From Fidelibacterota bacterium (GTDB lineage Bacteria > Fidelibacterota > Marinisomatia > Marinisomatales > UBA1611): 64,000 nucleotides of DNA. The stretch covers positions 22,285 to 86,284 of the forward strand of contig PAPB01000035.1 of assembly GCA_002708715.1 (NCBI GenBank), given 5' to 3'. Below the pieces are notes generated by a model. It made no database searches. It was not told the DNA's origin and saw only the letters and a program-made list of their open reading frames with translations. This document shows positions 15,601 through 40,844 of the stretch, in pieces. Every line of letters starts with the position of its first letter. Within the stretch, counting starts at the first letter, position 1. The translations under genes and the position numbers were made by a program.

Positions 15601-16581
15601 TTATTGTATTCCTGTTTTAAGGATATCATGGATATGTACAACCCCATCTGGTTTTTTTAGTTTTGTATTAGAGAATACAAATAAGCTAGTTATAGAATGT
15701 TTTTCCATGAGCTCAAGAGCTGATATTGCCAAGGTATCTGCAGTCACCCATTTTGGTTCTGGAGACATCAAACAATCTGCAGTTTGATCAAAAATTGTGT
15801 TTCCTTTATCTTCTAATCCTCTTCGAATATCACCATCGGTAATAATGCCTTTCATTTCATTGTTTTTATTTAAAACAGCAGTCATCCCAAATCCTTTTTC
15901 GGAGATAGTTAATAAAGCATCTTTAACTTTTGTATCAGTATAAACAAAAGGAATTCGATCATCTCTATGTGCAATTTGATCTAAAGTTAATAATAAACGT
16001 TTTCCAAGCATCCCTCCAGGGTGAAGTTTGGCAAAATCTTTTTTGTTAAATCCACGAAGTTCCAGAAGTGATACTGCTAAAGCATCTCCCATAGCTAAAG
16101 TAGCAGTGGTGCTAGCGGTTGGCGCAAGGTCTAATGTGCATGCTTCTTTATCTACTGATGTATCAAGAAAAAAATCAGATTTAAAAGCTAAAGTAGATTG
16201 CTTTCTACCAATGAGTCCAATGATGGTGATGTTTTTATTTTTTAAAGAAGGAAGAATATGTATTAATTCCATGGTCTCGCCACTGTTACTAATAATAAGG
16301 ACAATATCTTTTGCAGTAATCATCCCCAGATCACCATGAATTGCTTCTCCAGGATGAACAAATTGCGATGGTGTGCCAGTTGAGGCCATTGTAGATGCGA
16401 TTTTTTGAGATATTAGGCCTGATTTACCCATGCCTGAAACAATCAAACGCCCATTACATTCGAAGATAGCTTTTACAGCTAATGCAAAGTTTTCATTAAT
16501 ACGATTTTGAATTTGAGATACTGCTTTGGCTTCAATTTTAATAGTTTCTTTAGCAATACCTATTATATCAATATTTTTCAT
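15601..16581 (-). CDS. kdsD: Arabinose-5-phosphate isomerase (KdsD/KpsF: SIS domain plus tandem CBS)
   Basis: The SIS blocks GMGKSG and SNSGET are followed by a C-terminal CBS pair. The length is 326 aa. Confidence 0.9.
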   Translation of the reverse strand: MKNIDIIGIAKETIKIEAKAVSQIQNRINENFALAVKAIFECNGRLIVSGMGKSGLISQKIASTMASTGTPSQFVHPGEAIHGDLGMITAKDIVLIISNSGETMELIHILPSLKNKNITIIGLIGRKQSTLAFKSDFFLDTSVDKEACTLDLAPTASTTATLAMGDALAVSLLELRGFNKKDFAKLHPGGMLGKRLLLTLDQIAHRDDRIPFVYTDTKVKDALLTISEKGFGMTAVLNKNNEMKGIITDGDIRRGLEDKGNTIFDQTADCLMSPEPKWVTADTLAISALELMEKHSITSLFVFSNTKLKKPDGVVHIHDILKTGIQ

Positions 16582-16593
16582 TATATAAAATTT

Positions 16594-16608
16594 AATACTA
16601 TTAGTATT
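16594..16608. promoter_or_regulatory. Perfect 7-1-7 inverted repeat AATACTA-T-TAGTATT in the kdsD/bcp divergent intergenic region (candidate operator)
   Basis: Read directly from the sequence. It is followed by the direct repeat GTATTTAG-TG-GTATTTAG (16603-16620). It lies 40-54 nt upstream of the peroxiredoxin ATG. Confidence 0.35.
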
Positions 16609-16647
16609 TAGTGGTATTTAGATTTTGACCTGATATTCAATTAAAAA

Positions 16648-17136
16648 ATGAAAGCAATCCTATTTTTTTTTATGTTTAAAATTTCTTTATTTAGTTCATC
16701 ATTAAAACTAGGTGATAGTGTACCTAATTTTAATTTAAAGGATCAAAATGGTAGGCAGCATCAATTGATCGATTATAAAGGAGAAAAACTTGTTATCTAT
16801 TTTTTCCCTAAGGCGTTTACCCCAGGATGAACAAAGCAAGCGTGCGGGCTACGCGATAATTATGAAAGTTTTAGAAAAAATAATATTTCTATTTTAGGTG
16901 TTAGTTATGATACAGAGGATAAATTAAAGTTATTTAAGGAAAAATATAATTTGGATTTCAATTTATTATCAGATTCAGAAAAAATAATGGGGAAATTGTA
17001 TGATGTGAATAGTTATCATTTTTTTCCACAGCGTAAAACTTTTCTCATTAATGAAAATGGAGTGTTAGTACATATAATTAATTCAGTAAATATAGATAAT
17101 CATGCTGATGATATCTTAAAAATTTTTAAAAAATGA
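16648..17136 (+). CDS. bcp: Bcp/PrxQ-type peroxiredoxin with selenocysteine (TGA 16828-16830) at the peroxidatic position; N-terminal signal-like extension
   Basis: The two ORF-track fragments (16648..16830 and 16951..17136) are in the same frame. Reading through the TGA gives YFFPKAFTPG-U-TKQACGLRDNY...GVSYD...LLSD...RKTFLI. This is collinear with the Bcp motif FTPGCTxxAC, with the resolving Cys 5 residues later. Confidence 0.8.
16840..16854 (+). promoter_or_regulatory. Candidate bacterial SECIS hairpin for the Sec-peroxiredoxin
   Basis: GCGU-GCGGGCU-ACGC is a 4-bp GC stem with a G-rich loop, starting 10 nt after the UGA, in a locally GC-rich patch. The stem is short, so the call is tentative. 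Confidence 0.4.
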
Positions 17137-17149
17137 TAAGGAGTTTAGG

Positions 17150-17374
17150 ATGAAACTATCTATTGAATATTGTTCAGTTTGAAATTATTTACCTAAAGCT
17201 TCTAGTTTAGAAGCTGAATTAAAACAAAGTTTTTCTAATATTGATATTTCTCTTATCTCATCAGGGGGTGGAGTATTTGAGATTACTTTGGACAAAAAAT
17301 TGATTTTTTCAAAAAAATCTTTAGGACGTTTTCCCAATGATGGTGAAGTCGTGAGTTTAATCAATGAACGCTAG
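17150..17374 (+). CDS. SelW/SelT/Rdx-family small redox protein with a CxxU motif (Sec at TGA 17180-17182)
   Basis: The ORF track does not call it. AAGGAG (17138-17143) precedes the ATG at 17150. The translation is MKLSIEYCSV-U-NYLPKASSLEAELKQ...GGGVFEI...FSKK..GRFP, 74 codons ending at TAG 17372-17374. This matches the Rdx-fold pattern IEYCxxC/U. Confidence 0.75.
17197..17215 (+). promoter_or_regulatory. Candidate bacterial SECIS hairpin for the SelW-like gene
   Basis: A perfect 8-bp stem AGCUUCUA/UAGAAGCU with loop GUU, starting 15 nt after the UGA. Confidence 0.55.
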
Positions 17375-17387
17375 GATAAGATAGGTT

Positions 17388-18137
17388 TTGAAAATTATAT
17401 ATGAAGAAAAACAGTATTTAATTAGTAGTGAAAATGCATTTGATTTATCTATTAAAAACACCTTCTCGGGCGATGCTCCAACTTTTTATAACTCTTCTCA
17501 ACCAAGTTGTAAACCTTTAGCATCAGAAGATTTTATTGGTGATATACAACAAGGTGGGAGTTGTAATGTCCCTATTGTTTCAATTAATATTCATTGTACT
17601 GGAACTCATACAGAGTGTGAGGGGCATGTGAATGATTCCAATATTACAATAGCTGATGTGTGCCCTATAGATTTCATTCCAGCTTCTTTGATAACAATTT
17701 CACCAGAGCAAGCGAACAGAACGGAGGAATCATATCATGTTGCATTAGCAGAGGATATGGTTATAACTAAAAATGCTATTAAGGAGAAAATGTTGACAGC
17801 GCATAGTGGACTTATTATCCGCACAACACCGAATAGTCATTCTAAAAAATCAAGAAACTATGATTATGAAGCAGCACCTTTCCTTACTAATGATGCTATC
17901 GATTATATTATAGCCGCGGGAGTGGAGCATTTACTTGTCGATTTGCCTTCGATTGATAAATCTGAAGATGATGGACAATTAGGCAATCATAAAAGGTTTT
18001 TTAAGAGTGGTAAAACAGTCTCGGAATTACTTTTTATAGAAAATGATATAAATGATGGGTTTGGTTTTTTACATATTCAGGTTCCAAACTGGGCACTAGA
18101 TTCAGCACCTAGCAGACCAATTTTTTATCCGACGTAA
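17388..18137 (+). CDS. Cyclase-family protein (arylformamidase / kynurenine formamidase-like fold)
   Basis: HCTGTHTECEGH resembles the HxGTHxDxPxH metal motif. A later block, GVEHLLVDLPSIDK...GNH, resembles the second conserved block. TTG start. Confidence 0.5.
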   Translation: MKIIYEEKQYLISSENAFDLSIKNTFSGDAPTFYNSSQPSCKPLASEDFIGDIQQGGSCNVPIVSINIHCTGTHTECEGHVNDSNITIADVCPIDFIPASLITISPEQANRTEESYHVALAEDMVITKNAIKEKMLTAHSGLIIRTTPNSHSKKSRNYDYEAAPFLTNDAIDYIIAAGVEHLLVDLPSIDKSEDDGQLGNHKRFFKSGKTVSELLFIENDINDGFGFLHIQVPNWALDSAPSRPIFYPT

Positions 18138-18205: not shown

Positions 18206-19489
18206 ATGAGCAAAAATTTTAAAAGTGTAATTACTTGTGACCTAGATGGAAAGGTAGAGACTTTCAGCGATGGTGCAGTGAATCTTTTTGGCTATAATGC
18301 TGAAGAAGTTATTGGTAAAATGCGAGTGAGTGATTTTAGTGATGGCCAGGTTGTGTTAGGTCATGTAATAGGTTGGTTGGATGAATCAGTTAAAAAAGGG
18401 AAATGGGAAGGAGAGACAGCATTTTTACGTAAGGATGGGAGTGAGTTTTCAGCTAGAATTAAAATTACTCCAACAAAAGATAAAAATGGTGAACATATTG
18501 GATATTGTGGTGTTACCACACCATTAAAAGATAAAACGCCCGATGAAGTAAGACCAAAAATAGATTTTATGACAAAAATATTTACATGGGTTGTAATTAT
18601 GCGGTTGCCGTTTTTATCTGCTACTATTATGCCAATTTTGGTTGGAGCTGCAGTGGCAAAATTTATGGGATATCCCGTAGACTGGTCTTGGCTTGGCCTT
18701 ACTTTGCTAGGTGGATCTCTGTTGCATATTGGGACTAATACATCTAATGATTATTTTGACTATTTGAGTGGGACAGATGATTTAAACTATAATTATAGTA
18801 ATAAAGGTTTAAATGGTGGAAGTAGGGGGATACAAATGGGGCTTATTACTCCTACAGGTGTGCGAAATTTAGCGATCACTGTTTTTACGTTAAGTGTGTT
18901 GGTAGGTATTCCACTTATACAAAAAGCAGGTATGTCTGTTTTATGGTTAGGATTAATAGGATTTTTATCTGGCTTATTTTATACAGCACCTCCATTTCGA
19001 TTTTCATCAAGGAAAGGAATGGGTGAATTGCTCATTGGACTTAATTTTGGTCCACTAATGGTGGCAGGTAGTACGTTGGTACAAACAGGTCAACTTCTAC
19101 CAGAAGCATTTTTAGCGGGTATCCCTCTGGGATTCCTAATTGCTGCTGTTGTATATGTTAATGAATTTCCAGATCATGATAGTGATAAAGCAACAGGAAA
19201 GAATACCCTTATAGTGGTATTTGGTCCTGAAAAAGCAAGAGTTGGCTATGTTGCATTAGTCTCAGGTGCTTTTCTTAGTATAGTCTTATTGGTCTTGAAT
19301 GGAACTTTTCCTTCTTTAATATTGATTGCGTTATTAGCTTCATATTTTGGGATAACATCTATTCAAACACTCTATAAATATTACAATAGTAGACTGCTTG
19401 AGCCAGCAAATTGGGGTACTATTATTATGCACAGCGTTACAGGTGTATTGCTTTTTATAGGACTTTGGCTAGGAAACTCCGCAATATAA
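18206..19489 (+). CDS. PAS domain fused to a UbiA-superfamily (MenA-like) polyprenyltransferase
   Basis: The N-terminal ~110 aa have a PAS pattern (DGKVETFSDGAVNLFGYNAEEVIGK...FLRKDGSEF...I..T). They are followed by ~8 TM helices with NDYFDYLSGTD and NEFPDHDSDKATGKNTL, the two Asp-rich prenyltransferase motifs. Confidence 0.75.
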   Translation: MSKNFKSVITCDLDGKVETFSDGAVNLFGYNAEEVIGKMRVSDFSDGQVVLGHVIGWLDESVKKGKWEGETAFLRKDGSEFSARIKITPTKDKNGEHIGYCGVTTPLKDKTPDEVRPKIDFMTKIFTWVVIMRLPFLSATIMPILVGAAVAKFMGYPVDWSWLGLTLLGGSLLHIGTNTSNDYFDYLSGTDDLNYNYSNKGLNGGSRGIQMGLITPTGVRNLAITVFTLSVLVGIPLIQKAGMSVLWLGLIGFLSGLFYTAPPFRFSSRKGMGELLIGLNFGPLMVAGSTLVQTGQLLPEAFLAGIPLGFLIAAVVYVNEFPDHDSDKATGKNTLIVVFGPEKARVGYVALVSGAFLSIVLLVLNGTFPSLILIALLASYFGITSIQTLYKYYNSRLLEPANWGTIIMHSVTGVLLFIGLWLGNSAI

Positions 19490-19510
19490 CAAATTCTTTA
19501 TTATGAATTA

Positions 19511-19536
19511 AAGCCCCTTTTTAGGGGCTTTTTTAT
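19511..19536 (+). terminator. Rho-independent terminator after the PAS-UbiA gene
   Basis: AAGCCCCT-TTTT-AGGGGCTT is followed by a T-run. Confidence 0.8.
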
Positions 19537-19757: not shown

Positions 19758-20378
19758 GTGAATAAAAAGCTGTCACCAAAGTTGAAAAAATTCTTGGACT
19801 TTATACATCGATTTATATTGATTCATGATCAGTCTCCATCTTATGAAGAAATCATGCAAAGCTTAGGATTTGGATCATTGGGGACAGTTAACTGGTATGT
19901 AAAGACCCTAGAAGAACAGGGTTATTTATATCGTGTAAAAGGTCCTAACGGTAAGCGGGCACTCGCCTTAGCTCAAGAAGAGCTTTCCGCAACTACAACA
20001 GCCTGTTTACCGTTATTAGGGCTTATCGCTGCGGGTGAGCCTATTGAAGCGTTAGAGAATCCTGAGATGGTGGACGTTCCATCATCTTTATTGCATCCAG
20101 ATAATTATGTGCTACAGGTTAAAGGTAATTCTATGATTGATGAAAATATACATGATGGAGATTATATCGTTGCTAGAAAAGCAAAAACTGCACGTTCAGG
20201 ACAGATTGTTGTTGCTCTTGTTAATGGTGAAGCTACATTAAAATGTTATGTCCCTAAAAAAAATAAAGTTGAATTACATCCTCGGAATTCAACTTTTCCA
20301 GTTATAAAAATCGATTCGCATGATGATTTTCATATAAATGGTGTTTTACTTTATTCCTTTCGGAACTATTTGAATTAG
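19758..20378 (+). CDS. lexA: LexA repressor (S24 peptidase)
   Basis: It has a GTG start and an N-terminal wHTH (LDFIHRFI...SPSYEEIMQSLGF.S.GTV..YVKTLEEQGYL). It also has an Ala-Gly cleavage site (LIAAGEPIEA), the catalytic Ser (GNSM) and Lys (ATLK). Confidence 0.9.
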   Translation: MNKKLSPKLKKFLDFIHRFILIHDQSPSYEEIMQSLGFGSLGTVNWYVKTLEEQGYLYRVKGPNGKRALALAQEELSATTTACLPLLGLIAAGEPIEALENPEMVDVPSSLLHPDNYVLQVKGNSMIDENIHDGDYIVARKAKTARSGQIVVALVNGEATLKCYVPKKNKVELHPRNSTFPVIKIDSHDDFHINGVLLYSFRNYLN

Positions 20379-20389
20379 GAATAATACCC

Positions 20390-21562
20390 ATGATTAATAA
20401 AGACGTTTTTCACATACGTCTTAATAATATGGTGTTACAAGCTGAACAAATTATGGACCCTAGTCTTAAAACATGTTCTGTGGCTATTATTTCTTCAGAA
20501 GATCCTAATGGGAGTGTTATTGCATTATCTTCTGAAGCTAAAGAAGAAGGGATTTTTCATGGAATGAAGGTTTCTTTAGTTAGAAAAATGAGTCATAATA
20601 CGATACTGTTACCATATAATAAATCTCTTTATAATAGTATTAATAATCACATATATAATATTTTATCTAGATATACACCTATTATTGAACCAAATGGTAT
20701 TGGAAATTATTTTTTAGATATGTGTGGTATGGATGCTCTTAAAGGCAATATGGAGAACACAGGACTTTCTATTATTAAACATATTCAAAGTCAAACAAAT
20801 CTATCAGGAATAGTTGGGATTAGTATTAATAAACTGGTTAGTAAAGTTATTACTGATGTTGTGTCTGATATGATTCATAAGGTTGATAATGGAGATGAAA
20901 AAAAATTTCTTTCACCTTTAAAACCACAGGTGTTACCAATTGTACAAGAGAGAATGGTTAATCGAATGCTGAAATTCCTTTTTATTAAACAGATTAAAAA
21001 TATTCAAGAGATGTCAAAACAAGTTAAAGAATTCCAGATATTATTTGGATCTTATGCTACATTACTTGTTAAGCAATCAAATGGCTCTGATCAATCACCT
21101 GTGATGCCACCATATTATTTAGATCATATTGTAGAGCAAACAATTTTACCAAAGGATACAAATGATAAAAATATATTATTAGCGATAGTAAAAGATCTCG
21201 CTGAAAAAGTTGCATTTAAACTTAGAAAACGAAAGCAAAATTCAGGTAGAGTACAATTAGAAATTCACTATAGTGATGGATACAAATGTTTTTCTTTAGG
21301 GAAGATTGATGATATTGATGATTATTCTGTAATTATTATTTTTAAAAAATTATTTTTTTGTGCAAACAAACGTCGTAATCGTATACGTACTATATTAGTA
21401 AACCTTTGCAGATTCTCTCCTTATGTAGAGCAGATCAACCTCTTTGATACATATCAGAATCGTAGTTTGGATCTTTCTCGTTCTTTAGAAAAAATACGAT
21501 TGAAGTATGGTGTACGTAGTGTACAAACTGCTAATATATTGCAGGCTCTAGGTTGTACCTGA
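20390..21562 (+). CDS. imuB: ImuB-like inactive Y-family DNA polymerase paralogue
   Basis: It is collinear with the DinB/UmuC fold, but the N-terminal catalytic DxD block reads HIRLNNM (acidic residues replaced). It sits between lexA and dnaE2. Confidence 0.7.
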   Translation: MINKDVFHIRLNNMVLQAEQIMDPSLKTCSVAIISSEDPNGSVIALSSEAKEEGIFHGMKVSLVRKMSHNTILLPYNKSLYNSINNHIYNILSRYTPIIEPNGIGNYFLDMCGMDALKGNMENTGLSIIKHIQSQTNLSGIVGISINKLVSKVITDVVSDMIHKVDNGDEKKFLSPLKPQVLPIVQERMVNRMLKFLFIKQIKNIQEMSKQVKEFQILFGSYATLLVKQSNGSDQSPVMPPYYLDHIVEQTILPKDTNDKNILLAIVKDLAEKVAFKLRKRKQNSGRVQLEIHYSDGYKCFSLGKIDDIDDYSVIIIFKKLFFCANKRRNRIRTILVNLCRFSPYVEQINLFDTYQNRSLDLSRSLEKIRLKYGVRSVQTANILQALGCT

Positions 21563-24500
21563 TGTTTATTCATTTAAACATACATTCTGTTTATTCCTCA
21601 ATGTGTGGACTTTTATCATTATCAGATCTAATGGATAAAGCAAAATCCTGTTCTATGGATACATTAGGATTAACTGATGTGAATGGACTATGGGGTTTTA
21701 TTCGTTTTGTACAACATTGTCGTCAATCTGATATTAAACCGATTGCTGGGGTTAATTTGATAACAGATCATGATGAGGTTATACTATTAGTAGAGAATCA
21801 GAATGGGTATGAAAATCTTTGTAGAATTATATCCACGATACATGATAATTCAGACCAAAAGATATCGGATGTATTAGAAGGATATTCATCTGGGTTATTT
21901 GTTATAGCGTTTGATAAAAAAACACTACAGTTATTACATCGTTTTATTCCAGATACACATCTTTTTGTAGAGCTACGACCAGGATTCTCAGAGTTGCAAA
22001 TACAACAATTAGCAAGGGATTTGAAATTAGAAATCGTTGTAACTGGTGATGTATATTTTGCATCAGAGAGAGATTATAGATCATACATAGTTTTGCGTGC
22101 TATAGATAATAGTGTAACATTGGATCAGTTAGATTTATCAAAACAGAAAACAAAACAACATTGGTTTCGTAATGAGAGAGAGATGGTGCATTTATTCCCA
22201 AATAGTTTAGATGCAATTAATAATACTCGATACTTAGCTGATCGTTGTAAGACTGATTGGTCATTTATTAATACTATTTTTCCAGGATTATCACTTAAAG
22301 AAACTTACCATGCGAATAGAGAATTAAAAGATAAAGTTTACATAGGTGCTAAGAAGCGTTATAATGATATAAATAGCAATGTGCGGAATCGTATTAATTA
22401 TGAATTACAACTTATTACTCAAAAAGGTTTTGCACCTTATTTTCTTATTGTTCAAGATATTATTACTAAGACGCAGGCTACTATTGGACGAGGGTCTGCA
22501 GCCGCATCAATTGTGAGTTATTGTCTTTTTATTACTCAGGTGGATCCTTTACGTTATAATTTACAATTTGAACGTTTTATCCATTCAGAGAGAGAAAATA
22601 TGCCAGATATTGATGTGGATTTTCCCTGGGATGAACGTGACAGTATTTTAGAGTATGTATTTAAAAAATATGGTAATGAACGTACGGCGATGGTTTCTAA
22701 TCAGGTTATTTTAAAAACTCGTTCAGCTATTCGAGAGGTAGCGAAAGTATATGGATTGTCAAATGAAGAAATTAAAAGTATTACAAATCGTATTGGTTGG
22801 TATCATTCATCTAAAGATTTAGAACATTGGATACGGACAGATTCCCGGTTTGCTAATCTTGATTTAAATGATACTATAATTCGTATTTTAAAAGAAAGTG
22901 AGAAAATCATAGGAGCCTTTCGTTATTCTTCAGTTCATCCTGGTGGAGTGCTAATTGTACCAGATGAGATTAGAAAATATGTACCTGTCCTTACAGCACC
23001 GAAAGGTGTTCAAATTGTAGAATGGGAGAAGGATCAGGTAGAAGATTCTGGACTTTTAAAAATTGATTTATTAGGTAATAGGAGCCTAGCTGTAGTTCGT
23101 GATACTATTTCTTCTATAAATATTCATAGAGAAGAGTTTGATAATAAATATTTAGACTATCATCAAATCCAACCTATCGGTGATAAAAAAACAGAGGACT
23201 TATTGAAAATAGGTAAGACGATGGGGGTCTTTTATATAGAGAGCCCTGCCACTAGACAATTACTTGCTAAGTCGGGAATAGTAGACTTTGAACATGTAGT
23301 CATCTATTCATCAATTATTCGCCCTGCCGCTAATAAATATACGAATCTAATGTTGTCTAGAATACATGGTGAAAAATGGAATTTAATTCATCCAGATTTA
23401 GAGTTTTTAAAAGAAAGTTATGGGATTATGGTGTATGAAGAACATGTCTCTATGGCGGTAATGACTATGGCGGGGTTGGGATATGCAGAAGCAGAACAAT
23501 TAAGAAAAACGATGAGTCGAAATTCTATGCAACATTTTATTATATCATGGAAACAAAAATTTATTGGAGGTGCACAAAAAAGAGGATATCCTTTAAAAAT
23601 AATCAATACTGTTTGGGAAATGATTGAATCTTTTGTTGGTTATTCTTTCTGTAAGCCTCATTCTGCATCTTATGCTATGCTTTCTTTTACTTGTGCATAT
23701 CTCAAGGCTCATTTTCCAGCTGAGTTTTTATCATCTGTTATATCTAATCAAGGTGGTTTTTATTCATCATATGCTTATATGAATGAAGCACGTAGATTGA
23801 AAATCAAGATACTTACTCCAGATATAAACGATAGTAATTATCATTGGCATGGACAATCTGATAAAATTCGAATGGGTTTTATGAGTATTAGAAATTTAAA
23901 ATATAAAACAATTAGTCTAATTTTATCTAAAAGAAAAAATGGTTATTTTGATTCTCTAGATGATTTTTTATTTCGTGTTGATTTAGACTTTTCTGATGCT
24001 ATGGCGTTAACTAATGCTGGTTGTTTTAGATCTATAACTTTAAATATGAGTCACCAAGAGATTGCATATAATGTAGCAGGATTTTATTTGCAGAATGGAT
24101 CACGAAAAACATTTGGACCAAGTCTATTAAAAAGACACCTGACACTAGATGAAAAATATCAATTAGAATTAGATACGTTTGGCTTCCCTATTACTATTCA
24201 TCCTACTGCAAGATATCGGCCAATGCTTAGTAAGAGGATTTGTTATGCAAAGGATATCCCAAAATATCAAGGTCAGTCTATTTATTTAATAGGTATTTAT
24301 ATAACAAGAAAAGAATCTACAACACGTATGTCTGAACCTATGGAATTTTTAACATTAGAAGATGAGACCGATATCTATGAGTGTGTTCTCTTCCCTACTG
24401 TTTTTAAAGATTTTGGTGATCTGGTACACTGGGAAAGATTATTTATTATAAGAGGAAAAGTAGAAGAATCTTTTGGTGTTTGTAGTATTAATGTTGAAAA

Positions 24501-24573
24501 AATAGGCAGTTTACAGCAATGGATAAACCGTATAAAGCAGCATAAATCAGTATCTACATATCATTTTGATTAG
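21562..24573 (+). CDS. dnaE2: Error-prone DNA polymerase III alpha-subunit paralogue DnaE2 (ImuC)
   Basis: It has a PHP domain (FIHLNIHSVYS), the Pol III alpha core blocks (GRGSAAAS, PDIDVDF, HPGG, KID.LG) and an OB fold at the C-terminus. The preferred start is the ATG at 21562, overlapping the imuB stop (TGATG). The ORF track starts at 21553. Confidence 0.85.
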   Translation: MFIHLNIHSVYSSMCGLLSLSDLMDKAKSCSMDTLGLTDVNGLWGFIRFVQHCRQSDIKPIAGVNLITDHDEVILLVENQNGYENLCRIISTIHDNSDQKISDVLEGYSSGLFVIAFDKKTLQLLHRFIPDTHLFVELRPGFSELQIQQLARDLKLEIVVTGDVYFASERDYRSYIVLRAIDNSVTLDQLDLSKQKTKQHWFRNEREMVHLFPNSLDAINNTRYLADRCKTDWSFINTIFPGLSLKETYHANRELKDKVYIGAKKRYNDINSNVRNRINYELQLITQKGFAPYFLIVQDIITKTQATIGRGSAAASIVSYCLFITQVDPLRYNLQFERFIHSERENMPDIDVDFPWDERDSILEYVFKKYGNERTAMVSNQVILKTRSAIREVAKVYGLSNEEIKSITNRIGWYHSSKDLEHWIRTDSRFANLDLNDTIIRILKESEKIIGAFRYSSVHPGGVLIVPDEIRKYVPVLTAPKGVQIVEWEKDQVEDSGLLKIDLLGNRSLAVVRDTISSINIHREEFDNKYLDYHQIQPIGDKKTEDLLKIGKTMGVFYIESPATRQLLAKSGIVDFEHVVIYSSIIRPAANKYTNLMLSRIHGEKWNLIHPDLEFLKESYGIMVYEEHVSMAVMTMAGLGYAEAEQLRKTMSRNSMQHFIISWKQKFIGGAQKRGYPLKIINTVWEMIESFVGYSFCKPHSASYAMLSFTCAYLKAHFPAEFLSSVISNQGGFYSSYAYMNEARRLKIKILTPDINDSNYHWHGQSDKIRMGFMSIRNLKYKTISLILSKRKNGYFDSLDDFLFRVDLDFSDAMALTNAGCFRSITLNMSHQEIAYNVAGFYLQNGSRKTFGPSLLKRHLTLDEKYQLELDTFGFPITIHPTARYRPMLSKRICYAKDIPKYQGQSIYLIGIYITRKESTTRMSEPMEFLTLEDETDIYECVLFPTVFKDFGDLVHWERLFIIRGKVEESFGVCSINVEKIGSLQQWINRIKQHKSVSTYHFD

Positions 24574-24583
24574 ATATGCGCAT

Positions 24584-25642
24584 TTATTTTGCTAAAGTAA
24601 TTCTTTGTAAATCAAAAGAATAATCATTGTAGGGCTCAAATGAATCATCATCTCCAGGTATATTAACAAGTATATATAAATACTCTTCATTTGTATCTAA
24701 AGCGATACCACGAGCAGTAAGGTTGCCAGCAGAAAGGTAATAATTATTTTCTAATTTTGTTTCTTGAGAAAATTCGATAATAAATACACCCATTTCGTCA
24801 GCATCAGTTGGTGCAGTAAAAATTCTTTCTCCATTCTGAGATGTTGCGGCGGCTAATCCTGCGGATTTTATTTGATATTTACCTGCAAATGTCATATCGT
24901 TTCCATAATATGAATAGATATGTTGTACATCTGTTGTATTATTTTTATCGCTTATACATGTGAAAATAATTCCTTTTTGATGGTTATATATAAGGTGATG
25001 TACATTACCTACAAAACCATATGGATCTGATATATTAAAATCCTGATAAAACCTATCATTATCCCAGTTATATTTTTTTATAGATGAAGATGTTGCTACG
25101 TAAAGGGTTTTGTTTTCTTTATTAATAGCGAATTCTCCATTAAGTACTGATTGAGATGTTTCTTGACCAGAGATTATGTTGAGAGTAATACAAGAGGGAT
25201 CAGTTTTTGAAGAAATAATAAGAATAGAATCATTTACAAATATTATATCATTCATGTTCATTAGTGAGACAGCAAATGATGTGTCTACATTCATGGTCTC
25301 AGTATTAATTAATTGAATTGTTGACTCTCCTTCGTGAGCAACAGCCAGAATTGAATTATTAAGACTAATATCTATTGCAATGGGGTGAGAACCAACAATC
25401 GTAGTTTGTTGAAGAGATAAAGAATTTTGAGTGTTAATTTTTAATATAGCATTATTATTATAGTCAGATAGATAAATTGAGTTATTATTTGTAGAGATGA
25501 TCATATCTGAAAAACTTTTGCCTAATTCTAAAATTTCAAAATCTGAATATTGAAAAAATATTTCGGGCGTTTCTTCATCTTGGTATATAGAACAACCGAG
25601 TAGAAAAAGTAAGGTTAATATATAAATAAGCTTTTTTATCAT
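24584..25642 (-). CDS. Lipoprotein, probable 6-7-bladed beta-propeller (YVTN/YncE-like repeats)
   Basis: It has a lipobox (LLGC) and recurring ~45-aa units ending in patterns such as SIYLSDYNNNAILKIN, ILAVAHEGESTIQLIN, TLYVATSSSIKKYN and YLYILVN. It overlaps the upstream gene by ATGA. Confidence 0.4.
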   Translation of the reverse strand: MIKKLIYILTLLFLLGCSIYQDEETPEIFFQYSDFEILELGKSFSDMIISTNNNSIYLSDYNNNAILKINTQNSLSLQQTTIVGSHPIAIDISLNNSILAVAHEGESTIQLINTETMNVDTSFAVSLMNMNDIIFVNDSILIISSKTDPSCITLNIISGQETSQSVLNGEFAINKENKTLYVATSSSIKKYNWDNDRFYQDFNISDPYGFVGNVHHLIYNHQKGIIFTCISDKNNTTDVQHIYSYYGNDMTFAGKYQIKSAGLAAATSQNGERIFTAPTDADEMGVFIIEFSQETKLENNYYLSAGNLTARGIALDTNEEYLYILVNIPGDDDSFEPYNDYSFDLQRITLAK

Positions 25643-26610
25643 GATTCAAATCTAAAAAGTGATCCAAATTGTATAATAAAGGGAGAGATAAGTTGACTTT
25701 CATTTAATTTTTGATAAATAGGAATCTGTAATGTCATCTCAAAATCTAAATTATCGGTAGCTTTTGTTCCAATTTTACCTGTCATAAAATAATTTTCACC
25801 ACCTCTATCTCTAGAAATTTTTCCATATTCATAATAATCGCGGGTAGATAGTAGATGACTAAATTGAATACCGCCATAGATAAGAGGATTCTCAATGTAA
25901 TCTAGATTAATGAGAGTTTGAATTTCATTACCATATTGATATCCATATATATTTTCTCCATTAGAAATTCTTGTAAATATTCCTCCTGATAAAATAAAAC
26001 GTTTGATATCTCTATTACTATATATTGAAAATATTGGATCAATTGTTCCAGTTCCTACTTGTAAGTTATCACTTATCCTATCACCAAATTCATCAGTCAT
26101 ATTAATTTTACCATTACTTAATTTTAAACCGATACCAAAAACAATAGGGGTTTCATTAAGAAAAGATTTTTGTACTCTAGCTTGTAGTAAAACATCTCCT
26201 AAACCATAGGATTCCCTAAAATATTTTCCACCATTGTACATATGTTGATTCTGGCCTCTAAATAATATTTTTTGATTTAGTATATAACGAAAAGGAAAAA
26301 ATGCGCTTATGGTAAAATGATCTGTAATTCCATAGGATGTAATAATGGTTAGGCTGCTATTATCCGTTCTTTCTTTATTGTAGTTAGGAATAGATCTATT
26401 TTCATATTGCGCTCTATCAAGTTGTTCATGCTCATAGGAGATACCAAAAGAAAACTGTCCATTTTGAGAGTCATTATATTCTAATAAACTTCCACCTGGA
26501 AGCAGTGGTCTTCTTCAGCTAATACCACCCTGTGCGAATGCATTATTAAGCTGAAATAAAAGGTATAAGCTTATAGTAAAAGGTTTTATGTTTTTTAAAT
26601 CTTTTATCAT
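25639..26610 (-). CDS. Outer-membrane beta-barrel protein interrupted by one in-frame TGA (26517-26515): recoding, pseudogene or sequence error
   Basis: My hand translation of the apparently empty stretch 26242-26610 is continuous with ORF 25639..26241. It gives MIKDLKNIKPFTISLYLLFQLNNAFA-QGGIS-TGA-RRPLLPGGSLLEYNDSQNGQFSFGISYEHE... (signal peptide, then alternating beta-strand pattern). The ATG at 26610 overlaps the amylase stop (ATGA). Confidence 0.5.
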
Positions 26611-32897: not shown

Positions 32898-34211
32898 ATG
32901 AATTTCTTTTTGAATAGTAGACTAAAAAATAGTTTGGACTTTTTCCAGGTGATTTTTTCTACAAGTTATTCAATAAAACTGATAATTATTTTTACTATTT
33001 TTTCCTGTGCCAATCCTGAAGATGAAGTTGTTGCAAAAATTAATGATATTAGCATTACTAAATCTTCTTTTGAAACAAAGTATAGTGATTTTTTAAAAGC
33101 CAATTATAAAAAAGACAACTTATTAAATAGATATGCATTCTTAAATGGTTTAATAGATAATATTTTAATATTGAATTTTGCGTCTAAAGAAAAAATTAAA
33201 GAAAGTTCAGAGTTTATTATAAAAAGAAATAAGATTTTTGATCAGTTAATGTTGAACTATTTTTTTGAAGAAGAAGTTAATCTAGCGTATGGTATTACGG
33301 ATTCTGAATTACGAAAATTTTCAGTTTGGAAAAATAATACATTCCACGTTCGGCATCTTTTTGCGAAAAATAAATATCAAATAGAAAACATGCATATGAG
33401 ATTGTTATCGGGAGATTCTTGGGAGGATATAGCGCAACAGACATTTAAAGATACAATACTAAAAAATAATGGTGGAGATCTAGGATGGGTAAGTTTAGGT
33501 GATCTAGATCCTATTTTTGAATTGACGGCTTTTACCTTAGAAAAAAAGCAAATTTCAGGTCCAATAAAAACAAAATCAGGGTATAGTATTATTCAGTTAC
33601 TTGACAAGGTTCCAAATGGTTTAATAACGGAGCAACATTATCAATTATCTAAAAATAAACTAAAAAATTTGGTGCAGTATTATAAACGTCAGTTAGGAAT
33701 ACAAGAATATATGATTGAAGCGGAAAAATCATTGAATATTAAATTCTCTGATGACGTTTTGCATAATTTCTATAATAATTATTTTTCATTAACAAAAACT
33801 AAAGAATTTGATGAGACTACAGTGCTTGTAAATGTTAATAAAGATGTTTGGGATATAAGAAAAACTAAAAAACAATTACAATCATTATCAGATATTCAAG
33901 AAAGTTCGATTATAACAAAAATTGATTTTAAGAATGCAATTAAAGGCCTTATATGTCGATCTCATTTTTTAGAAAAAGCCAAATTGAAAAATATTAATAA
34001 AGACAAATTATTTGAAAAAGAATTTCAAGAGTTAATAAATAAAGCACTCGTCAAAAATGTATTAGATATGGTTTATGGAAAACTCGAGCAAAATGATTCT
34101 GAGTATTTAGTGCGGAAAAAAGATAAATATCTAAATTTTCGAAATATTTTGGTAATGAATAATGTTGTATCTGTTGATAGTAGTGCATTAAAAAATCTTA
34201 TAATATCATGA
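32898..34211 (+). CDS. Parvulin-type peptidyl-prolyl isomerase (PpiC/SurA/PrsA-like), lipoprotein (module A)
   Basis: It has a lipobox (IFSC) and the parvulin core HVRHLF...GGDLGWVSLGDLDPIFELTAF.L...ISGPIKTKSGYSIIQL. It is flanked by SurA-like helical regions, and its stop overlaps the next ATG (ATGA). Confidence 0.7.
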   Translation: MNFFLNSRLKNSLDFFQVIFSTSYSIKLIIIFTIFSCANPEDEVVAKINDISITKSSFETKYSDFLKANYKKDNLLNRYAFLNGLIDNILILNFASKEKIKESSEFIIKRNKIFDQLMLNYFFEEEVNLAYGITDSELRKFSVWKNNTFHVRHLFAKNKYQIENMHMRLLSGDSWEDIAQQTFKDTILKNNGGDLGWVSLGDLDPIFELTAFTLEKKQISGPIKTKSGYSIIQLLDKVPNGLITEQHYQLSKNKLKNLVQYYKRQLGIQEYMIEAEKSLNIKFSDDVLHNFYNNYFSLTKTKEFDETTVLVNVNKDVWDIRKTKKQLQSLSDIQESSIITKIDFKNAIKGLICRSHFLEKAKLKNINKDKLFEKEFQELINKALVKNVLDMVYGKLEQNDSEYLVRKKDKYLNFRNILVMNNVVSVDSSALKNLIIS

Positions 34212-37120
34212 TAAAAATACTATTCATGTTTTTGAAACTATTATTTTTAATACTGAATATGATTTTTGCAGGTACTACAGGGAAATTAACAGGTCTTATA
34301 ATAGATGAGAATACCTCACAGCCAATTATAGGATGTAATATTATAATTGAAAATACATTTTTAGGTACTTCATCTGATCAAAATGGAGAATATATTATCC
34401 TAAATATTCCGCCTGGGGAGTATAATGTTCGTTATGAAATGATTGGATATAAAAATATTTTGCAAGAGGGAATAGCTATTTCTATTGATAAGACTAACCG
34501 ATTAAATATAAACCTATTGGAAAGCGTTATACAGGGTGAAATGGTAACTGTAAAAGCCGAGAGAAAGCTTATTCAATTTGATGTTACCCAATCAGAAGCG
34601 ATTATTACATCGGATATATTGGATGATATGCCTGCGGTTGAAGTGATGGATGTGTTACGTTTGCAGGGAGGCGTTACCCAGGATAGTGATGGGGAAATTC
34701 ATTTAAGAGGTGGAAGAGCCAGCGAAGTGTCTTATATGATTGATGGTGTCCCTGTATCTGATATGTATGACGGAGGTGTATCTGTACAAATTGAAAATGA
34801 TAATGTGCAAGAGCTGCAGGTGATAAGTGGAACATTTAATGCTGAGTATGGGAAAGCATTAACTGGTGTTATTAACATGGTGACAAAAGATGGTGGAAGT
34901 CAGTTGGACGGTTCAATCCATATTTATTCTGGTGACTATACTACTAAAGATCCTATTTTTAATAATTTGGATCGACTAACCATAAGTGAAGATTATAGTA
35001 TATCGGCAAATATTAGTGGCCCATTATTACCAGGAAAGATTTCTTTCTATTCAAGTGGAAGAGTCAATAGCTCTCAGGGATGGCTCAATGGACTTCAAAC
35101 TTTTAATATATATGGTGACACGGTATTTACCGATAATAATAATAATAAATATTTTGATAGTGGCGATGAAAATAAAACACCGTTTTACAAGAGTTTAAAT
35201 TGGAATAATGCATGGTCTACTCAAAATAAACTCTTGTTCCAATTACGTCCATCTACAATATTAAAATTGAATACAATATTGAATTCTCAACAATCTCAAG
35301 ACTACAATCATGCATTACAATTTGTTAGTAATGGGCAATTAACAAATCTTGAGAGAGGAAAATTATTTATTATTAGTCTATCGCATTCTTTCTCGCCTAC
35401 TAGTTTTTTCCAATTTAATCTTAGTCAATTCCAAAGAAATTATGATTCATATTTATTTGAGAATCCATTAGATGATAGATATGTAAAACCCGATAGCTTG
35501 TATTGGTCTCATGTTCAGGCAATTATTCCTGATCATATTATAGATCAATATGGTGATGATGTGACATTCTATCCTAATTACGCACTCTATAGAATGGGAG
35601 TAGATACTAGGAGGTTTCAAAGAGAGACAAAAACGCAAACTATTAAACTGGATTTTACTAGCCAAATTAATAAATATAATCAAATAAAAGCAGGTATAGA
35701 CTATACGCAAAATATTTTATATTTAGATAACTATTCTATAATGGACTCTGTACAGACTGATCAAATTTTTACATTATCTATCCCAGAAAAAAATAGTTTT
35801 TCAAGGAGCTCATATACAAATAAGCCAAAAGAGATAGCCCTCTTTTTGCAAGATAAAATTGAATATGGTGATATGATTATTAATATAGGTTTGAGATATG
35901 AGCAATTTGATCCGAATAGTAGAACACCTAATAATATTCATGAGCCTTACATAAATAACCCTCGTAATCCTGCACTTGATTCTCTGACAATAACTGAACG
36001 TGAAGCAATAGATTGGGGAGCAATCTCATATATAGATCAGGATAGCTTGGGTAATGATGTTGCACACACATATGCTGAGTACTATGACAGGTTTAATGAC
36101 CAACCAACTCTTAATAGCAAAATCGGTTGGTGGAAAAACACCACAATAAAAAAGCAATTGAGCCCGCGAATGGCGGTCGCGTATCCTATCTCTGATAAGG
36201 GAGTGATACATTTTGCATATGGATATTTTTTTAAAGTTCCTGACTATTCTTTTCTCTATGATAATTCAGAATATAAATTAACAGAGACAGGAACAAATTT
36301 TGGTATATTTGGTAATCCAGACCTTAAGCCTGAGACAACTGTAAGTTATGAGATTGGTTTGAAGCAGGAGGTCCAAAAGAATACGCGGTTAGAATTAAGA
36401 GCATTTTATAGGGATGCAAGGAACTATGTATCAAGTGGGATACCTATTGACCTTGGTGATGGTAAAACATATTATACTTATGTAAATAAAGATTATGCCA
36501 ATTCAAGAGGGATTATTACAACGATTTATAAACGTATTAACACTATGTTTGGTGGCCAAATTGATTATACCTACCAAATAGCAGAAGGCGCTAATTCTAA
36601 TCCCGAAGAAGAGTTTGGCGCTGCATTAGCTGGGAATGAACCGACAAAGTCGATGATACCTTTAGATTGGGATCAAAATCATACTTTAAATGGGACTATT
36701 TTTGCTTCTCTAAACAATTGGAATATTAATACTATTTTTCAGTTTGGTAGTGGTTATCCTTATACACCAAATATCACAAACTATGAAATGCAGGGTGAAG
36801 TTTTATCAAACGTTTTGCAAAGGAACAGTAGAAGAAAGCCAATAACCTTTCGTCTGGATATTAAGGTTCAAAGAAAAATAAAATTAAGTAATTATCAAGG
36901 GAAAGTATATGTTGGAATATACAATCTTACAGATAGACGAAATCAGATTAATGTATATGGAGATACAGGTAGTGCAAGTGAAACAATTGAAAAAAGACGT
37001 GCGGAAATCATTAGCCCGTTTGAACCAATGAGGCCAAACACGATATCAGAATATTTTAATCGTCCTGATTGGTATGACCCACCTAGACGTATTCAATTCG
37101 GAGTTCAGTTTGGTATTTAA
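34208..37120 (+). CDS. TonB-dependent outer-membrane receptor with an N-terminal carboxypeptidase-regulatory-like domain (module A)
   Basis: It has a signal peptide, a CarbopepD_reg-like block (GKLTGLIIDENTSQPIIGCNIII..T..GTSSDQNGEYIILNIPPGEYNV) and a plug domain (HLRGGRASEVSYMIDGVPV...VISGTFNAEYGKALTGVINMVTKDG). A long beta-barrel region includes YGYFFKVP and DLKPETTVSYEIG. Confidence 0.85.
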   Translation: MIKILFMFLKLLFLILNMIFAGTTGKLTGLIIDENTSQPIIGCNIIIENTFLGTSSDQNGEYIILNIPPGEYNVRYEMIGYKNILQEGIAISIDKTNRLNINLLESVIQGEMVTVKAERKLIQFDVTQSEAIITSDILDDMPAVEVMDVLRLQGGVTQDSDGEIHLRGGRASEVSYMIDGVPVSDMYDGGVSVQIENDNVQELQVISGTFNAEYGKALTGVINMVTKDGGSQLDGSIHIYSGDYTTKDPIFNNLDRLTISEDYSISANISGPLLPGKISFYSSGRVNSSQGWLNGLQTFNIYGDTVFTDNNNNKYFDSGDENKTPFYKSLNWNNAWSTQNKLLFQLRPSTILKLNTILNSQQSQDYNHALQFVSNGQLTNLERGKLFIISLSHSFSPTSFFQFNLSQFQRNYDSYLFENPLDDRYVKPDSLYWSHVQAIIPDHIIDQYGDDVTFYPNYALYRMGVDTRRFQRETKTQTIKLDFTSQINKYNQIKAGIDYTQNILYLDNYSIMDSVQTDQIFTLSIPEKNSFSRSSYTNKPKEIALFLQDKIEYGDMIINIGLRYEQFDPNSRTPNNIHEPYINNPRNPALDSLTITEREAIDWGAISYIDQDSLGNDVAHTYAEYYDRFNDQPTLNSKIGWWKNTTIKKQLSPRMAVAYPISDKGVIHFAYGYFFKVPDYSFLYDNSEYKLTETGTNFGIFGNPDLKPETTVSYEIGLKQEVQKNTRLELRAFYRDARNYVSSGIPIDLGDGKTYYTYVNKDYANSRGIITTIYKRINTMFGGQIDYTYQIAEGANSNPEEEFGAALAGNEPTKSMIPLDWDQNHTLNGTIFASLNNWNINTIFQFGSGYPYTPNITNYEMQGEVLSNVLQRNSRRKPITFRLDIKVQRKIKLSNYQGKVYVGIYNLTDRRNQINVYGDTGSASETIEKRRAEIISPFEPMRPNTISEYFNRPDWYDPPRRIQFGVQFGI

Positions 37121-37133
37121 AAGTAAATATTGC

Positions 37134-40100: not shown

Positions 40101-40844
40101 CTTTGTATGCGGTATCTACCAAATAGCTCAACATGTTTTCCTGGATTTTTACATCCAGCAAAGGAAGTCAATTTTAGAGTAGAGCGTCAGGTATCTTTAA
40201 CAGGTGAAGATGAAGTAGATTGGGAGCAGATACCGATTGGATTTATTGATGTAATACCTTTTGGTGATCCCGATGGATATTTTAATGCTGATGGAGATAG
40301 AGAAAGTGACTGGATAGTTTTTATGGATCATGAAGATGAAGAAGGGAACCCTATTCCTTCTTGGAGATTTTTATTAAATCTTCTCCCATATGATGAAATG
40401 TTAGTTTATGATGCACCTCAGCCAGGTGATACGGCCTATGTAATTATTGATAAACCATTTTTGAGTAGCGATGTTTATGAGTTTAATACAATTGCTTCTC
40501 ATATTAATGTTGAAGATGCAGTTACTGACCTTGATAAAATAAAAGTTGTTCCTAACCCATATTTTGCAGCTTCGGCATTCGAGAATCAAAATACATTTAA
40601 TACAGGAAGAGGCCCAAGAGAAATACAATTTCGTTATCTACCTAACGATTGTACAATTCGTATTTATACAATTTCTGGTGAATTAGTGAAAACTATTCAT
40701 CATTCATCTCCAATTGAATCAGGTACAGGAAGATGGGATTTATTGACAAAGGATAATTTGGCCGCTTCTTTTGGTGTATATGTTTATCATATAGAAGCGG
40801 ACAATATTGGGGAAAAAATTGGTAAGCTGGCAATTGTGAAATGA
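37134..40844 (+). CDS. Large secreted surface protein (module A): conserved N-domain, acidic DxDxDG Ca-binding-type repeats, FN3-like module, variant T9SS-like C-terminal domain
   Basis: The start is set at MLLFVTMPFVSLLDAQS (signal peptide). ADGIDN(D/N)GDG...SP(V/I)IT.EM repeats occur 3-4 times. DESRDDGIDNDGDW and FPGEPNIDKTDVSESDQ blocks are present. The FN3-like block is PPIVTALAGDGKVTLYWDN...FEGYKIYRATD. The C-terminus reads IKVVPNPYF...LPNDCTIRIYTISGELV...GVYVYHIEA...GKLAIVK. It is a paralogue of 52433..56401. Confidence 0.6.
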   Translation: MLLFVTMPFVSLLDAQSLERGDPNYRRETPIDVNKVRASIHNIGSSGGGGAYGFHYEWPTNSDRRYIAYQALYVGSEVVTNSGETKPLVTIAHRSDQEGNSMMWEPIPGYLNPNSTKIAISDNETTWPNTWPDKLGDNNDPGWAGSWNGYFGKNQFNAGQEIFYKISDDRNYIVGYPYSPDTTDLTRKGAGIQVGVRAMEWKQILIEDVVFLLHEVTNDGSYDYEKVAFGYWLANCVGGNGDCNDDVIDFDLLTDIAWSLDNDGIGGSAFGTDPVGVGATSFIETPGNDKDRIDNDGDGETMGPVITEDMIINEILGNSIDDNFNGLVDENLSHVPVANQSGVGFADYIDNNGNGEAASPIITQEMIDAASSQNWNIWPHPNDGFQEGVIHLIQLDETDLGAGFADGIDNNADPEDPYLLEYPVGLGADVGSPVITAEMVSIASNDAWHRYKVPGTNIILYDLGSEDIGKSYADGIDNDGDGAIDEGIDEGIDEMIDESRDDGIDNDGDWTFIDDVGLNGDESGGIIAGVGDQKPTTGSGTGFPGEPNIDKTDVSESDQMGLTSVQKNDGGFNTASDNSLWTFYLSPGNIWDPPPGGDEPGSVDMQISSGFFPLKAGQTERIAMAIMMGNDQQDAIRNKYVAQLTYESDYQFAKAPNPPIVTALAGDGKVTLYWDNKAELTQDKYMGRITNGVDLYDFEGYKIYRATDFEFNDAYNITDGDGNRTFMEPYVQNGVPARWDLVNGKNGWHPIDLNGVKFYLGDDTGLVHSYVDNNVVNGQRYYYAVVSYDYGGDATNNIIPSDSPMRLRVHPLTGEIEMGPNVVGVVPSPPSAGYVEASLVENNISHVAGSSSGEINLEIIDPSVIKNNHRYRITFEDTLFANQQGLAGYDTATTKSYSLIDITNQDNHDTLLKDIESLPIVDGPVIDGFRLSFYNVGSLGFNQNFSYWSNDSLWTFDVGRYFTFNVVGSMLPYDYRIIFTEEQSDSSIDLCMRYLPNSSTCFPGFLHPAKEVNFRVERQVSLTGEDEVDWEQIPIGFIDVIPFGDPDGYFNADGDRESDWIVFMDHEDEEGNPIPSWRFLLNLLPYDEMLVYDAPQPGDTAYVIIDKPFLSSDVYEFNTIASHINVEDAVTDLDKIKVVPNPYFAASAFENQNTFNTGRGPREIQFRYLPNDCTIRIYTISGELVKTIHHSSPIESGTGRWDLLTKDNLAASFGVYVYHIEADNIGEKIGKLAIVK
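38583..38630 (+). repeat. 4 x 12-bp in-frame tandem repeat (ATTGATGAAGGT x2, then two degenerate copies)
   Basis: Read directly from the sequence; it encodes IDEG-IDEG-IDEM-IDES. Confidence 0.8.

Follow-up and report, generated by a model that had tools for sequence, protein, structure and literature searches.

A stretch of 64,000 nucleotides from contig PAPB01000035.1 of a member of the Marinimicrobia (SAR406), hereafter called the window, carries on its plus strand two adjacent genes that each contain an in-frame TGA codon (Table 1). The upstream gene, bcp, encodes a peroxiredoxin (Prx) of the BCP/PrxQ type, and the downstream gene, selW, encodes a small protein with a CxxU motif, in which U denotes selenocysteine (Sec). 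The segment 17150-17374 is very probably a genuine Marinimicrobia gene for a SelW-like selenoprotein of the Rdx family, with predicted decoding of its TGA as Sec.

The read-through product of selW, MKLSIEYCSV-U-NYLPKASSLEAELKQSFSNIDISLISSGGGVFEITLDKKLIFSKKSLGRFPNDGEVVSLINER, comprises 74 codons with the TGA as codon 11 and ends with the residues LINER. The stop codon of bcp (TGA, 17134-17136) is followed by a TAA, and 13 nt lie between this stop and the start codon of selW. Purine runs resembling the Shine-Dalgarno sequence of selW are found at the same place in its relatives. The standard list of open reading frames (ORFs) contains at this position nothing but a fragment of 28 amino acids (17288-17374), and the gene is therefore invisible to a mechanical ORF caller. 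The initial annotation of this DNA had claimed a gene of 74 codons hidden from the ORF track, starting 13 nt past the bcp stop behind a good Shine-Dalgarno sequence and carrying TGA at the second redox position of CxxU (IEYCSV-U-NY). All of this is borne out, the last point by alignment to CxxC homologues.

Table 1. Positions of the genes and sequence elements discussed in the text, numbered from the first letter of the window
Feature	Position	Strand	Details	Evidence
bcp, BCP/PrxQ-type peroxiredoxin gene	16648-17136	+	In-frame TGA 16828-16830 (FTPG-U-TKQAC)	Translation, Pfam, relatives
Weak candidate SECIS of bcp	16840-16854	+	GCGUG-CGGGC-UACGC, 5 bp, GG in loop	Folding
Shine-Dalgarno sequence of selW	17138-17143	+	AAGGAG, ends 6 nt 5' of the ATG	Sequence
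selW, SelW-like (Rdx family) selenoprotein gene (predicted)	17150-17374	+	ATG 17150-17152, stop TAG 17372-17374; CxxU = C8/U11	Translation, PF10262, NF041051, TIGR02174, PDB matches
In-frame TGA of selW, predicted Sec	17180-17182	+	Second CxxU position	TGA/Cys comparison across 70 loci
Candidate bacterial SECIS of selW	17197-17215	+	8-bp stem, GUU loop	Folding, bSECIS model, covariation, covariance model
Putative cyclase gene	17388-18137	+	13-nt gap from selW	Pfam Cyclase
Gene for PAS and MenA/UbiA-type prenyltransferase	18206-19489	+	68-nt gap from cyclase gene	NCBIfam MenA-like and PAS
Terminator-like hairpin and T-run	19510-19531	+	First downstream of bcp	Consensus match only
Outer-membrane barrel candidate, 323 codons	25639-26610	-	ATG 26610, stop 25639-25641, in-frame TGA 26517-26515	

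For profile searches with the selW product, U was replaced by C. The Pfam profile Rdx (PF10262), which had been proposed as a check on the read-through translation, matched with an E-value of 1.2e-21 and 77.1 bits (cutoff 22.6), and this match spans residues 3-72 and profile positions 2-73/74. The NCBIfam model NF041051 (SelT/SelW/SelH family (seleno)protein) was matched with 104.9 bits at an equivalog cutoff of 88, and TIGR02174 (CXXU_selWTH) with 66.5 bits at a cutoff of 34.2. Among solved structures, the sequence matches the Rdx-family proteins Atu0228 (2fa8, E 4e-11), MIEN1 (2ljk), SAV_2001 (3dex), and 2obk. The CxxU motif (residues 8-11, IEY-C-SV-U-NY) directly follows the N-terminal β-strand and aligns to CTQC of 2fa8 and CEPC of 2ljk. 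By these matches, the selW product is assigned to the Rdx/SelW-like proteins with a predicted thioredoxin-like fold, and family membership suggests a cytoplasmic protein of 74 residues.

To our knowledge, no biochemical function has been established for the Rdx family. The CxxU motif of the SelW-like family implies a thiol/selenol redox role (PMC1088965), and the motif of the selW product would, as a member of this family, cycle between a selenolate/thiol and a selenenylsulfide state. With the known bacterial SelW-like selenoproteins, selW shares the full-length domain, the CxxU after the first strand, a UGA with a small hairpin that has a G in the apical loop, and the marine habitat, and there is no essential difference between them; a host from the Marinimicrobia/SAR406 is not named for this family in PMC13188914, PMC1088965, and PMC2398784. 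The homology of the selW product to the Cys-type Rdx proteins Atu0228 (2fa8), SAV_2001 (3dex), and the Pseudomonas protein 2obk extends across some 70 residues (E 4e-11 to 6e-6), and their CxxC aligns on its CxxU. In contrast to the selW product, proteins of this type carry Cys, have about 105 residues and contain a CTQCNW motif, and the alphaproteobacterial loci of this type are Cys forms. Mammalian SELENOW and MIEN1 (C17orf37, 2ljk) have the Rdx fold family and the position of CxxU/CxxC in common with selW. In eukaryotes, the Sec insertion sequence (SECIS) lies in the 3' untranslated region, as in SELENOW, whereas the candidate element of selW is of the bacterial type and located within the coding region directly after the UGA.

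The hairpin downstream of the selW UGA

The UGA of selW is followed by a hairpin with the arms AGCTTCTA (17197-17204) and TAGAAGCT (17208-17215), which are 100% complementary over 8 bp and enclose the loop GTT. The hairpin starts at the 15th nt after the UGA, which leaves a spacer of 14 nt and a distance of 22 nt from the UGA to the loop. Folding of the 61 nt that follow the UGA gives this hairpin as the structure of lowest energy, at -9.0 kcal/mol. Thus, complementarity and folding both confirm the perfect 8-bp hairpin with a GUU loop that had been claimed for this position. The consensus for bacterial SECIS elements (bSECIS) comprises a loop of 3-9 nt whose first two positions include a G, a stem of 4-16 bp, a distance of 16-37 nt from the UGA to the loop, and a minimum free energy of ≤ -7.5 kcal/mol (PMC13188914), and the selW hairpin agrees with it in every one of these respects. 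The two strands of the window together contain 2668 TGA triplets. An ungapped hairpin of the bSECIS model follows 1.0% of them if the limit is ≤ -7.5 kcal/mol, and 0.4% if it is ≤ -9.0 kcal/mol. The selW hairpin is more than a chance structure.

Covariation of the hairpin was analyzed in a gapless alignment of the 48 nt from the UGA onward, which includes the window and the 28 best loci (29 sequences) and has the helix in columns 18-25/29-36. In this alignment, 86.2% of the helix cells are paired, whereas the share is 20-42% in slid controls, which displace the 3' arm by 1-3 nt. Changes on both sides occur in five of the eight pairs, and the pair 21-33 is found as AU, GC, UA, CG, UG, and GU. 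The covariation score of 0.42 contrasts with ≤0.20 in the slid controls and was reached by none of 500 shuffles. RNAalifold independently recovers the inner five pairs, and G26, which opens the loop, is the same in all sequences. Where the hairpin of the window differs from that of its nearest relatives, the substitutions on both arms are synonymous (tct/tta to tcc/ttg). The initial annotation had made its proposal depend on conservation of the hairpin in orthologues, and the compensatory changes in this alignment display such conservation.

The form of the hairpin varies among more distant selW genes. Some gamma- and alphaproteobacterial forms have a hairpin with a CGUGU loop in unchanged register, and actinobacterial forms have one with a CGUGA loop that is located 4 nt further upstream. 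The one close Cys form (CGTC), encoded in a Nitrospiraceae metagenome-assembled genome (MAG; locus L040, 6001-6222), retains a partial hairpin, GCC-AGUUU-GGC, in the same register, which looks like a relic SECIS after replacement of Sec by Cys. The SECIS of the Escherichia coli fdhF type and the selW hairpin are both stem-loops just 3' of the UGA with a G followed by a U in a small apical loop. In contrast to the fdhF-type element, the selW hairpin, which is a predicted element, has no bulged U, a loop of 3 nt, and no Rfam model, and there is no sequence similarity between the two.

A covariance model built from the alignment has a single match in the window (17180-17227). In nine held-out selW loci its match coincided exactly with the UGA register, and so did weak matches in two further loci (the Cys form L040, and L048); nothing else was matched in 0.5 Mb. 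This specificity is given little weight because it also reflects conservation of the coding sequence and is not independent evidence.

Decoding of the in-frame TGA

A scan of one genome per species yielded 70 loci related to selW. The codon at the position of U is TGA in 59 of these loci and TGT or TGC, encoding Cys, in the remaining 11, so that the comparison of Cys and Sec forms that had been suggested as a check supports the proposal at this very codon. The TGA loci belong to Neomarinimicrobiota, Planctomycetota, Delta- and Gammaproteobacteria, Acidimicrobiia, Gemmatimonadota, Poribacteria, and Nitrospinales; the Cys loci are found in the Nitrospiraceae MAG, in alphaproteobacteria, and in Pantoea. 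Past the TGA, the relatives retain an open frame and a conserved protein sequence. Close homologues in a large protein collection are full-length and have W at the Sec position because short contigs were translated with code 4; this W independently shows that there is a TGA at that position. Both selW and bcp are missed or truncated by standard gene callers, and public collections show Trp for Sec. More generally, the selenoproteins described here appear in public protein collections with Trp at the Sec position or in 5'-truncated form, which is a systematic annotation artefact of TGA-containing genes.

If selW follows the known bacterial route of Sec insertion, its UGA (codon 11) would be decoded as Sec, and the hairpin 14 nt past the UGA would act as a bSECIS that recruits SelB with Sec-tRNASec. 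Several results weigh against this. The folding z-score of the 61-nt context of selW is unremarkable (-1.26), and thus the weight of the evidence for a SECIS lies in homology and covariation and not in energy. Folding energy also does not separate Sec from Cys forms of selW (mean z -0.92 versus -0.64), the two groups overlapping because the Cys forms are GC-rich. The alignment used for covariation consists of coding sequences of related genes, and part of its signal is due to shared ancestry and amino-acid constraint. SECIS models of Rfam gave no match in a scan of the window at gathering thresholds or in a permissive scan of 16600-17450, in which only chance-level matches appeared; this null result is uninformative because Rfam has no model for this type of bSECIS. 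SECIS covariance models had been proposed as a check on the site; the custom model matches only the selW site in the window.

The machinery for Sec incorporation gives further negative results. SelA, SelB, and SelD were not found in NCBIfam scans of all 44 long ORFs of the window, and ARAGORN detected no tRNA-Sec in the window or in 60 related loci. A tblastn search of 1.07 Mb of related loci with an approximate E. coli SelD as query did not find SelD. As none was found in the window or the related loci, the machinery has to be assumed; for SAR406, SelD alone is documented in the literature, from three single-cell genomes (PMC5029168). Strong indirect evidence for the presence of the Sec trait comes from three independent in-frame TGAs that are conserved, lie within 10 kb, and each have a hairpin after them; the third is described below.

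The absence of Sec machinery from the window would also fit the view that the TGA is a true stop and that the selW region represents either a decayed pseudogene or a leader of 10 codons with non-coding DNA behind it, and standard ORF calling does halt at this codon. Against this view, at least seven phyla are represented among the 59 loci that retain TGA at this codon, the next 63 codons form an open frame whose protein sequence is conserved (Pfam E-value 1e-21), and the TGA is followed by a hairpin with compensatory changes. A like pattern is seen in bcp and in the outer-membrane barrel gene of the window. Termination at the TGA is therefore very improbable.

The window has a GC content of 33%, and code 11 leaves its 44 long ORFs intact. 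Internal TGAs are absent from genes of 775, 970, 1006, 1141, 1256, 1266, and 1322 codons, and TGA serves as the stop of many genes, which excludes codes 4 and 25; apart from the positions of predicted recoding, TGA is a stop codon in the window. Coding density in the window is interrupted only where in-frame TGAs account for it, at bcp and selW (16581-17388) and at the N-terminus of a minus-strand gene (26241-26607). Translation of TGA as a standard amino acid without Sec (Trp in code 4 or Gly in code 25) can thus be dismissed with near certainty, although the genome is AT-rich and orthologues in public databases carry W, since this W stems from gene calling on short contigs and the in-frame TGAs are confined to redox-Cys positions (CxxU, PxxxTxxU) or an invariant motif, each with a hairpin after it.

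The peroxiredoxin gene and its linkage to selW

The bcp product matches the Pfam family AhpC-TSA (PF00578) with an E-value of 5.9e-36. Its predicted Sec residue takes the peroxidatic position of PxxxTxxU (FPKAFTPG-U), and the resolving Cys follows five residues on. The in-frame TGA is kept in five syntenic relatives (L001, L002, L004, L005, and L006). The candidate SECIS of bcp has an energy of -4.3 to -4.9 kcal/mol, which falls short of the -7.5 kcal/mol of the bSECIS consensus, and a distance of 16-17 nt from the UGA; small hairpins akin to it are present in the relatives (six sequences in all). The Prx domain begins at residue 19, as aligned to solved BCPs (PDB 3drn). The 18 residues in front of it, MKAILFFFMFKISLFSSS (16648-16701), reach a Kyte-Doolittle mean of 2.27 over 11 residues and have small residues at the end, and the extension is hydrophobic in all relatives. 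By this heuristic call, the N-terminus resembles a signal peptide or a membrane anchor of N-in topology, which suggests that the bcp product is an exported or membrane-anchored selenoenzyme.

The nearest selW loci are found in MAGs of Candidatus Neomarinimicrobiota (Marinimicrobia/SAR406) with 69-75% identity. The conserved gene order consists of nagB-like, cytochrome c, and kdsD genes on the minus strand and of bcp, selW, the cyclase gene, the PAS-MenA-like gene, and lexA on the plus strand. L001, L002, L004, and L005 share this order, including the cyclase and prenyltransferase genes downstream of selW, and L006 shares part of it. Adjacent bcp and selW genes with both TGAs retained occur in five related MAGs. 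The gap between them is 0-25 nt in all six genomes, at a Prx identity of 51-77% across these relatives. No terminator-like site is present between bcp and 19510. Co-transcription of bcp and selW is likely because of these gaps, the gene order, and the position of the first terminator-like site; the same features fit the earlier claim of a small redox operon. Judged from spacing and synteny, co-transcription of selW with the upstream gene for the Sec-containing BCP is most likely, translational coupling of the two may occur as well, and the two genes would form a conserved two-selenoprotein antioxidant module. The cyclase and prenyltransferase genes probably share this transcription unit.

In other lineages, the surroundings of selW are heterogeneous. 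About 60 loci of these lineages have no Prx gene at a distance of up to 6 kb from selW, and the same-strand neighbors there encode FecR, 4HBT thioesterases, IlvD, and ABC ATPases. A recurrent redox partner was not found among the selW neighbors across phyla.

Two views of the relation between SelW and the Prx have to be weighed. According to the first, which has a fairly good probability, both proteins are functionally independent and are co-located or co-expressed only through an oxidative-stress or selenium-dependent regulon. The restriction of the bcp-selW linkage to one lineage is in line with this independence, and so is a probable difference in compartment, as the Prx has the N-terminal extension and SelW has none. 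The 0-25 nt spacing that is kept at a Prx identity of 51-77% speaks against it; such tight spacing suggests that co-expression, though not direct contact, has been selected for. Functional independence is compatible with the interpretation of selW as a selenoprotein gene in a co-transcribed module, which needs no direct interaction of SelW with the Prx.

According to the second view, SelW is a dedicated reductant of the neighboring Sec-Prx: the Se-S bond that the Prx would form between U61 and C66 after reducing peroxide would be reduced by the CxxU of SelW. Both are thiol/selenol redox proteins encoded by closely spaced, co-oriented neighboring genes in six genomes of a single clade, and a Prx/SelW pairing has been noted earlier with the functional link left open (PMC2398784). 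This relay is nevertheless unlikely. The conserved, hydrophobic extension of 18 residues with small residues at its end resembles a signal peptide, whereas SelW has no such segment: it starts with the first β-strand and its Pfam match begins at residue 3. Moreover, a partnership of this kind does not agree with the lack of Prx genes near selW in other lineages, where FecR, thioesterases, IlvD, and ABC proteins are encoded instead, and the classical reductant of BCP/PrxQ is thioredoxin, as reflected by the NCBIfam name "thioredoxin-dependent". Co-expression in an antioxidant or selenium-dependent unit without a direct relay is therefore favored, owing to the Prx extension and the lineage-limited linkage. 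If true, a two-selenoprotein peroxide relay in SAR406 would give the enigmatic Rdx/SelW family its first defined biochemical partner.

Further genes of the window and relation to known selenoproteins

A third gene with an in-frame TGA encodes a candidate outer-membrane barrel protein. Its start codon overlaps the stop codon of an upstream gene of the alpha-amylase family, and the TGA is located six residues past a predicted signal-peptidase site (NNAFA-QGGIS-U-RRPLLPGGSLL). In the motif QGG[IV]S-U-RRP[LIV]LP, the TGA is kept in 53 of 53 metagenomic or genomic loci with N-terminal coverage at 38-96% identity, and database versions of the gene are either 5'-truncated forms of 288 amino acids or code-4 forms with W at the TGA. 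A bSECIS-like hairpin, GCUUCC-AGGU-GGAAGU (about 26503-26488), begins 11 nt past the UGA. Across 42 distinct sequences, 95% of its cells are paired, and the pair 18-27, in which both positions are synonymous third positions, occurs as C-G in 21, as U-A in 16, as U-G in 5, and broken in none.

The AlphaFold model of the protein (predicted local distance difference test score 72.6) is a 12-stranded barrel, to which FapF and the COG4313 channel 4rl8 are the nearest solved structures (E 5e-13 to 3e-12). Searches of Pfam and NCBIfam gave no match even at E ≤ 1, and the table of 119 known selenoprotein families in the 2026 inventory (PMC13188914) has no matching entry. A profile search revealed a superfamily of 2874 representatives, in which most full-length members have a Cys motif directly after the signal peptide (A-CASCGC, S-CGSSFC, QG-CC-SGG); the predicted Sec appears to replace this N-terminal Cys motif. 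A gene for a β-propeller protein of 352 residues is located downstream in all contexts, and a TlpA-like redoxin is encoded upstream in some. The barrel gene is a probable candidate for an undescribed selenoprotein family and represents the part of the results that could add a new family.

A marine metagenome contig of 12.8 kb (MDTG01101506.1; L115) is identical to the window in the upstream and N-terminal translation of the barrel gene (KYPNFRIRMIKDLKNIKPFTISLYLLFQLNNAFAQGGIS, followed by the TGA and RRP). Because of this identity, the same or a near-identical population is represented in a public marine metagenome.

Downstream of the bcp-selW unit on the plus strand, lexA precedes a Y-family polymerase-like gene (20390-21562), after which comes a DnaE-like gene (21553-24573) with "error-prone DNA polymerase" as an alternative match. 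The three genes (19758-24573) look like a LexA-controlled mutagenesis cassette of the ImuB/DnaE2 type. Two similar three-gene modules are located in opposite orientation at 34208-41851 (plus strand) and 51426-59827 (minus strand). Each encodes a TonB-dependent/SusC-like receptor (970 or 1141 amino acids), a very large unannotated protein (1256 or 1322 amino acids), and a PorV/PorQ-family protein (336 amino acids). Both are flanked by peptidyl-prolyl isomerase-like genes, and several cargo proteins with a tail for the type IX secretion system (T9SS) are encoded nearby. The presence of T9SS cargo and PorV-family genes in the window is consistent with the Marinimicrobia, a lineage of the Fibrobacteres-Chlorobi-Bacteroidetes (FCB) group. 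The product of the gene at 45023-46072 (plus strand) is sulfatase-modifying-factor/GldK-like and matches both EgtB and the selenoneine synthase SenA below threshold. It is of note for the selenium context, but its identification as SenA was rejected, as the score was 102 bits at a cutoff of 420.

SelW-like proteins are the most abundant selenoprotein family in the Sargasso Sea data, with 48 Sec genes (PMC1088965), and the most abundant selenoproteins of the Global Ocean Sampling (GOS) data, with 427 Sec and 56 Cys forms; Prx (TxxU) is likewise among the top GOS families (PMC2398784). Zhang and Gladyshev (2008) reported "ten Prx/SelW sequences" on single GOS reads, attributed them to a small group of close relatives, and left the functional link open (PMC2398784). 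The 2026 inventory of prokaryotic selenoproteins lists both SelW-like proteins ("predicted with high confidence") and Prx (PMC13188914). On the GOS reads, a TxxU Prx is followed by a CxxU SelW; this arrangement is the same as in the window. Here, the pair is syntenic in five Neomarinimicrobiota MAGs. Thus, selW of the window and its pairing with bcp are already known in kind and in arrangement, and, given the abundance of the family, the GOS pairs, and the 2026 inventory, the finding is a correct rediscovery.

Nothing here alters the existing knowledge of SelW-like proteins. What is added is the assignment of the pair to the Marinimicrobia, its wider gene context, support for the SECIS by covariation, and the probable compartment mismatch. 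The anonymous "Prx/SelW" pair of the GOS data is thereby tentatively placed in the Marinimicrobia (SAR406), an abundant uncultured ocean lineage. By the present predictions, 10 kb of its DNA hold no fewer than two selenoprotein genes, and probably three.

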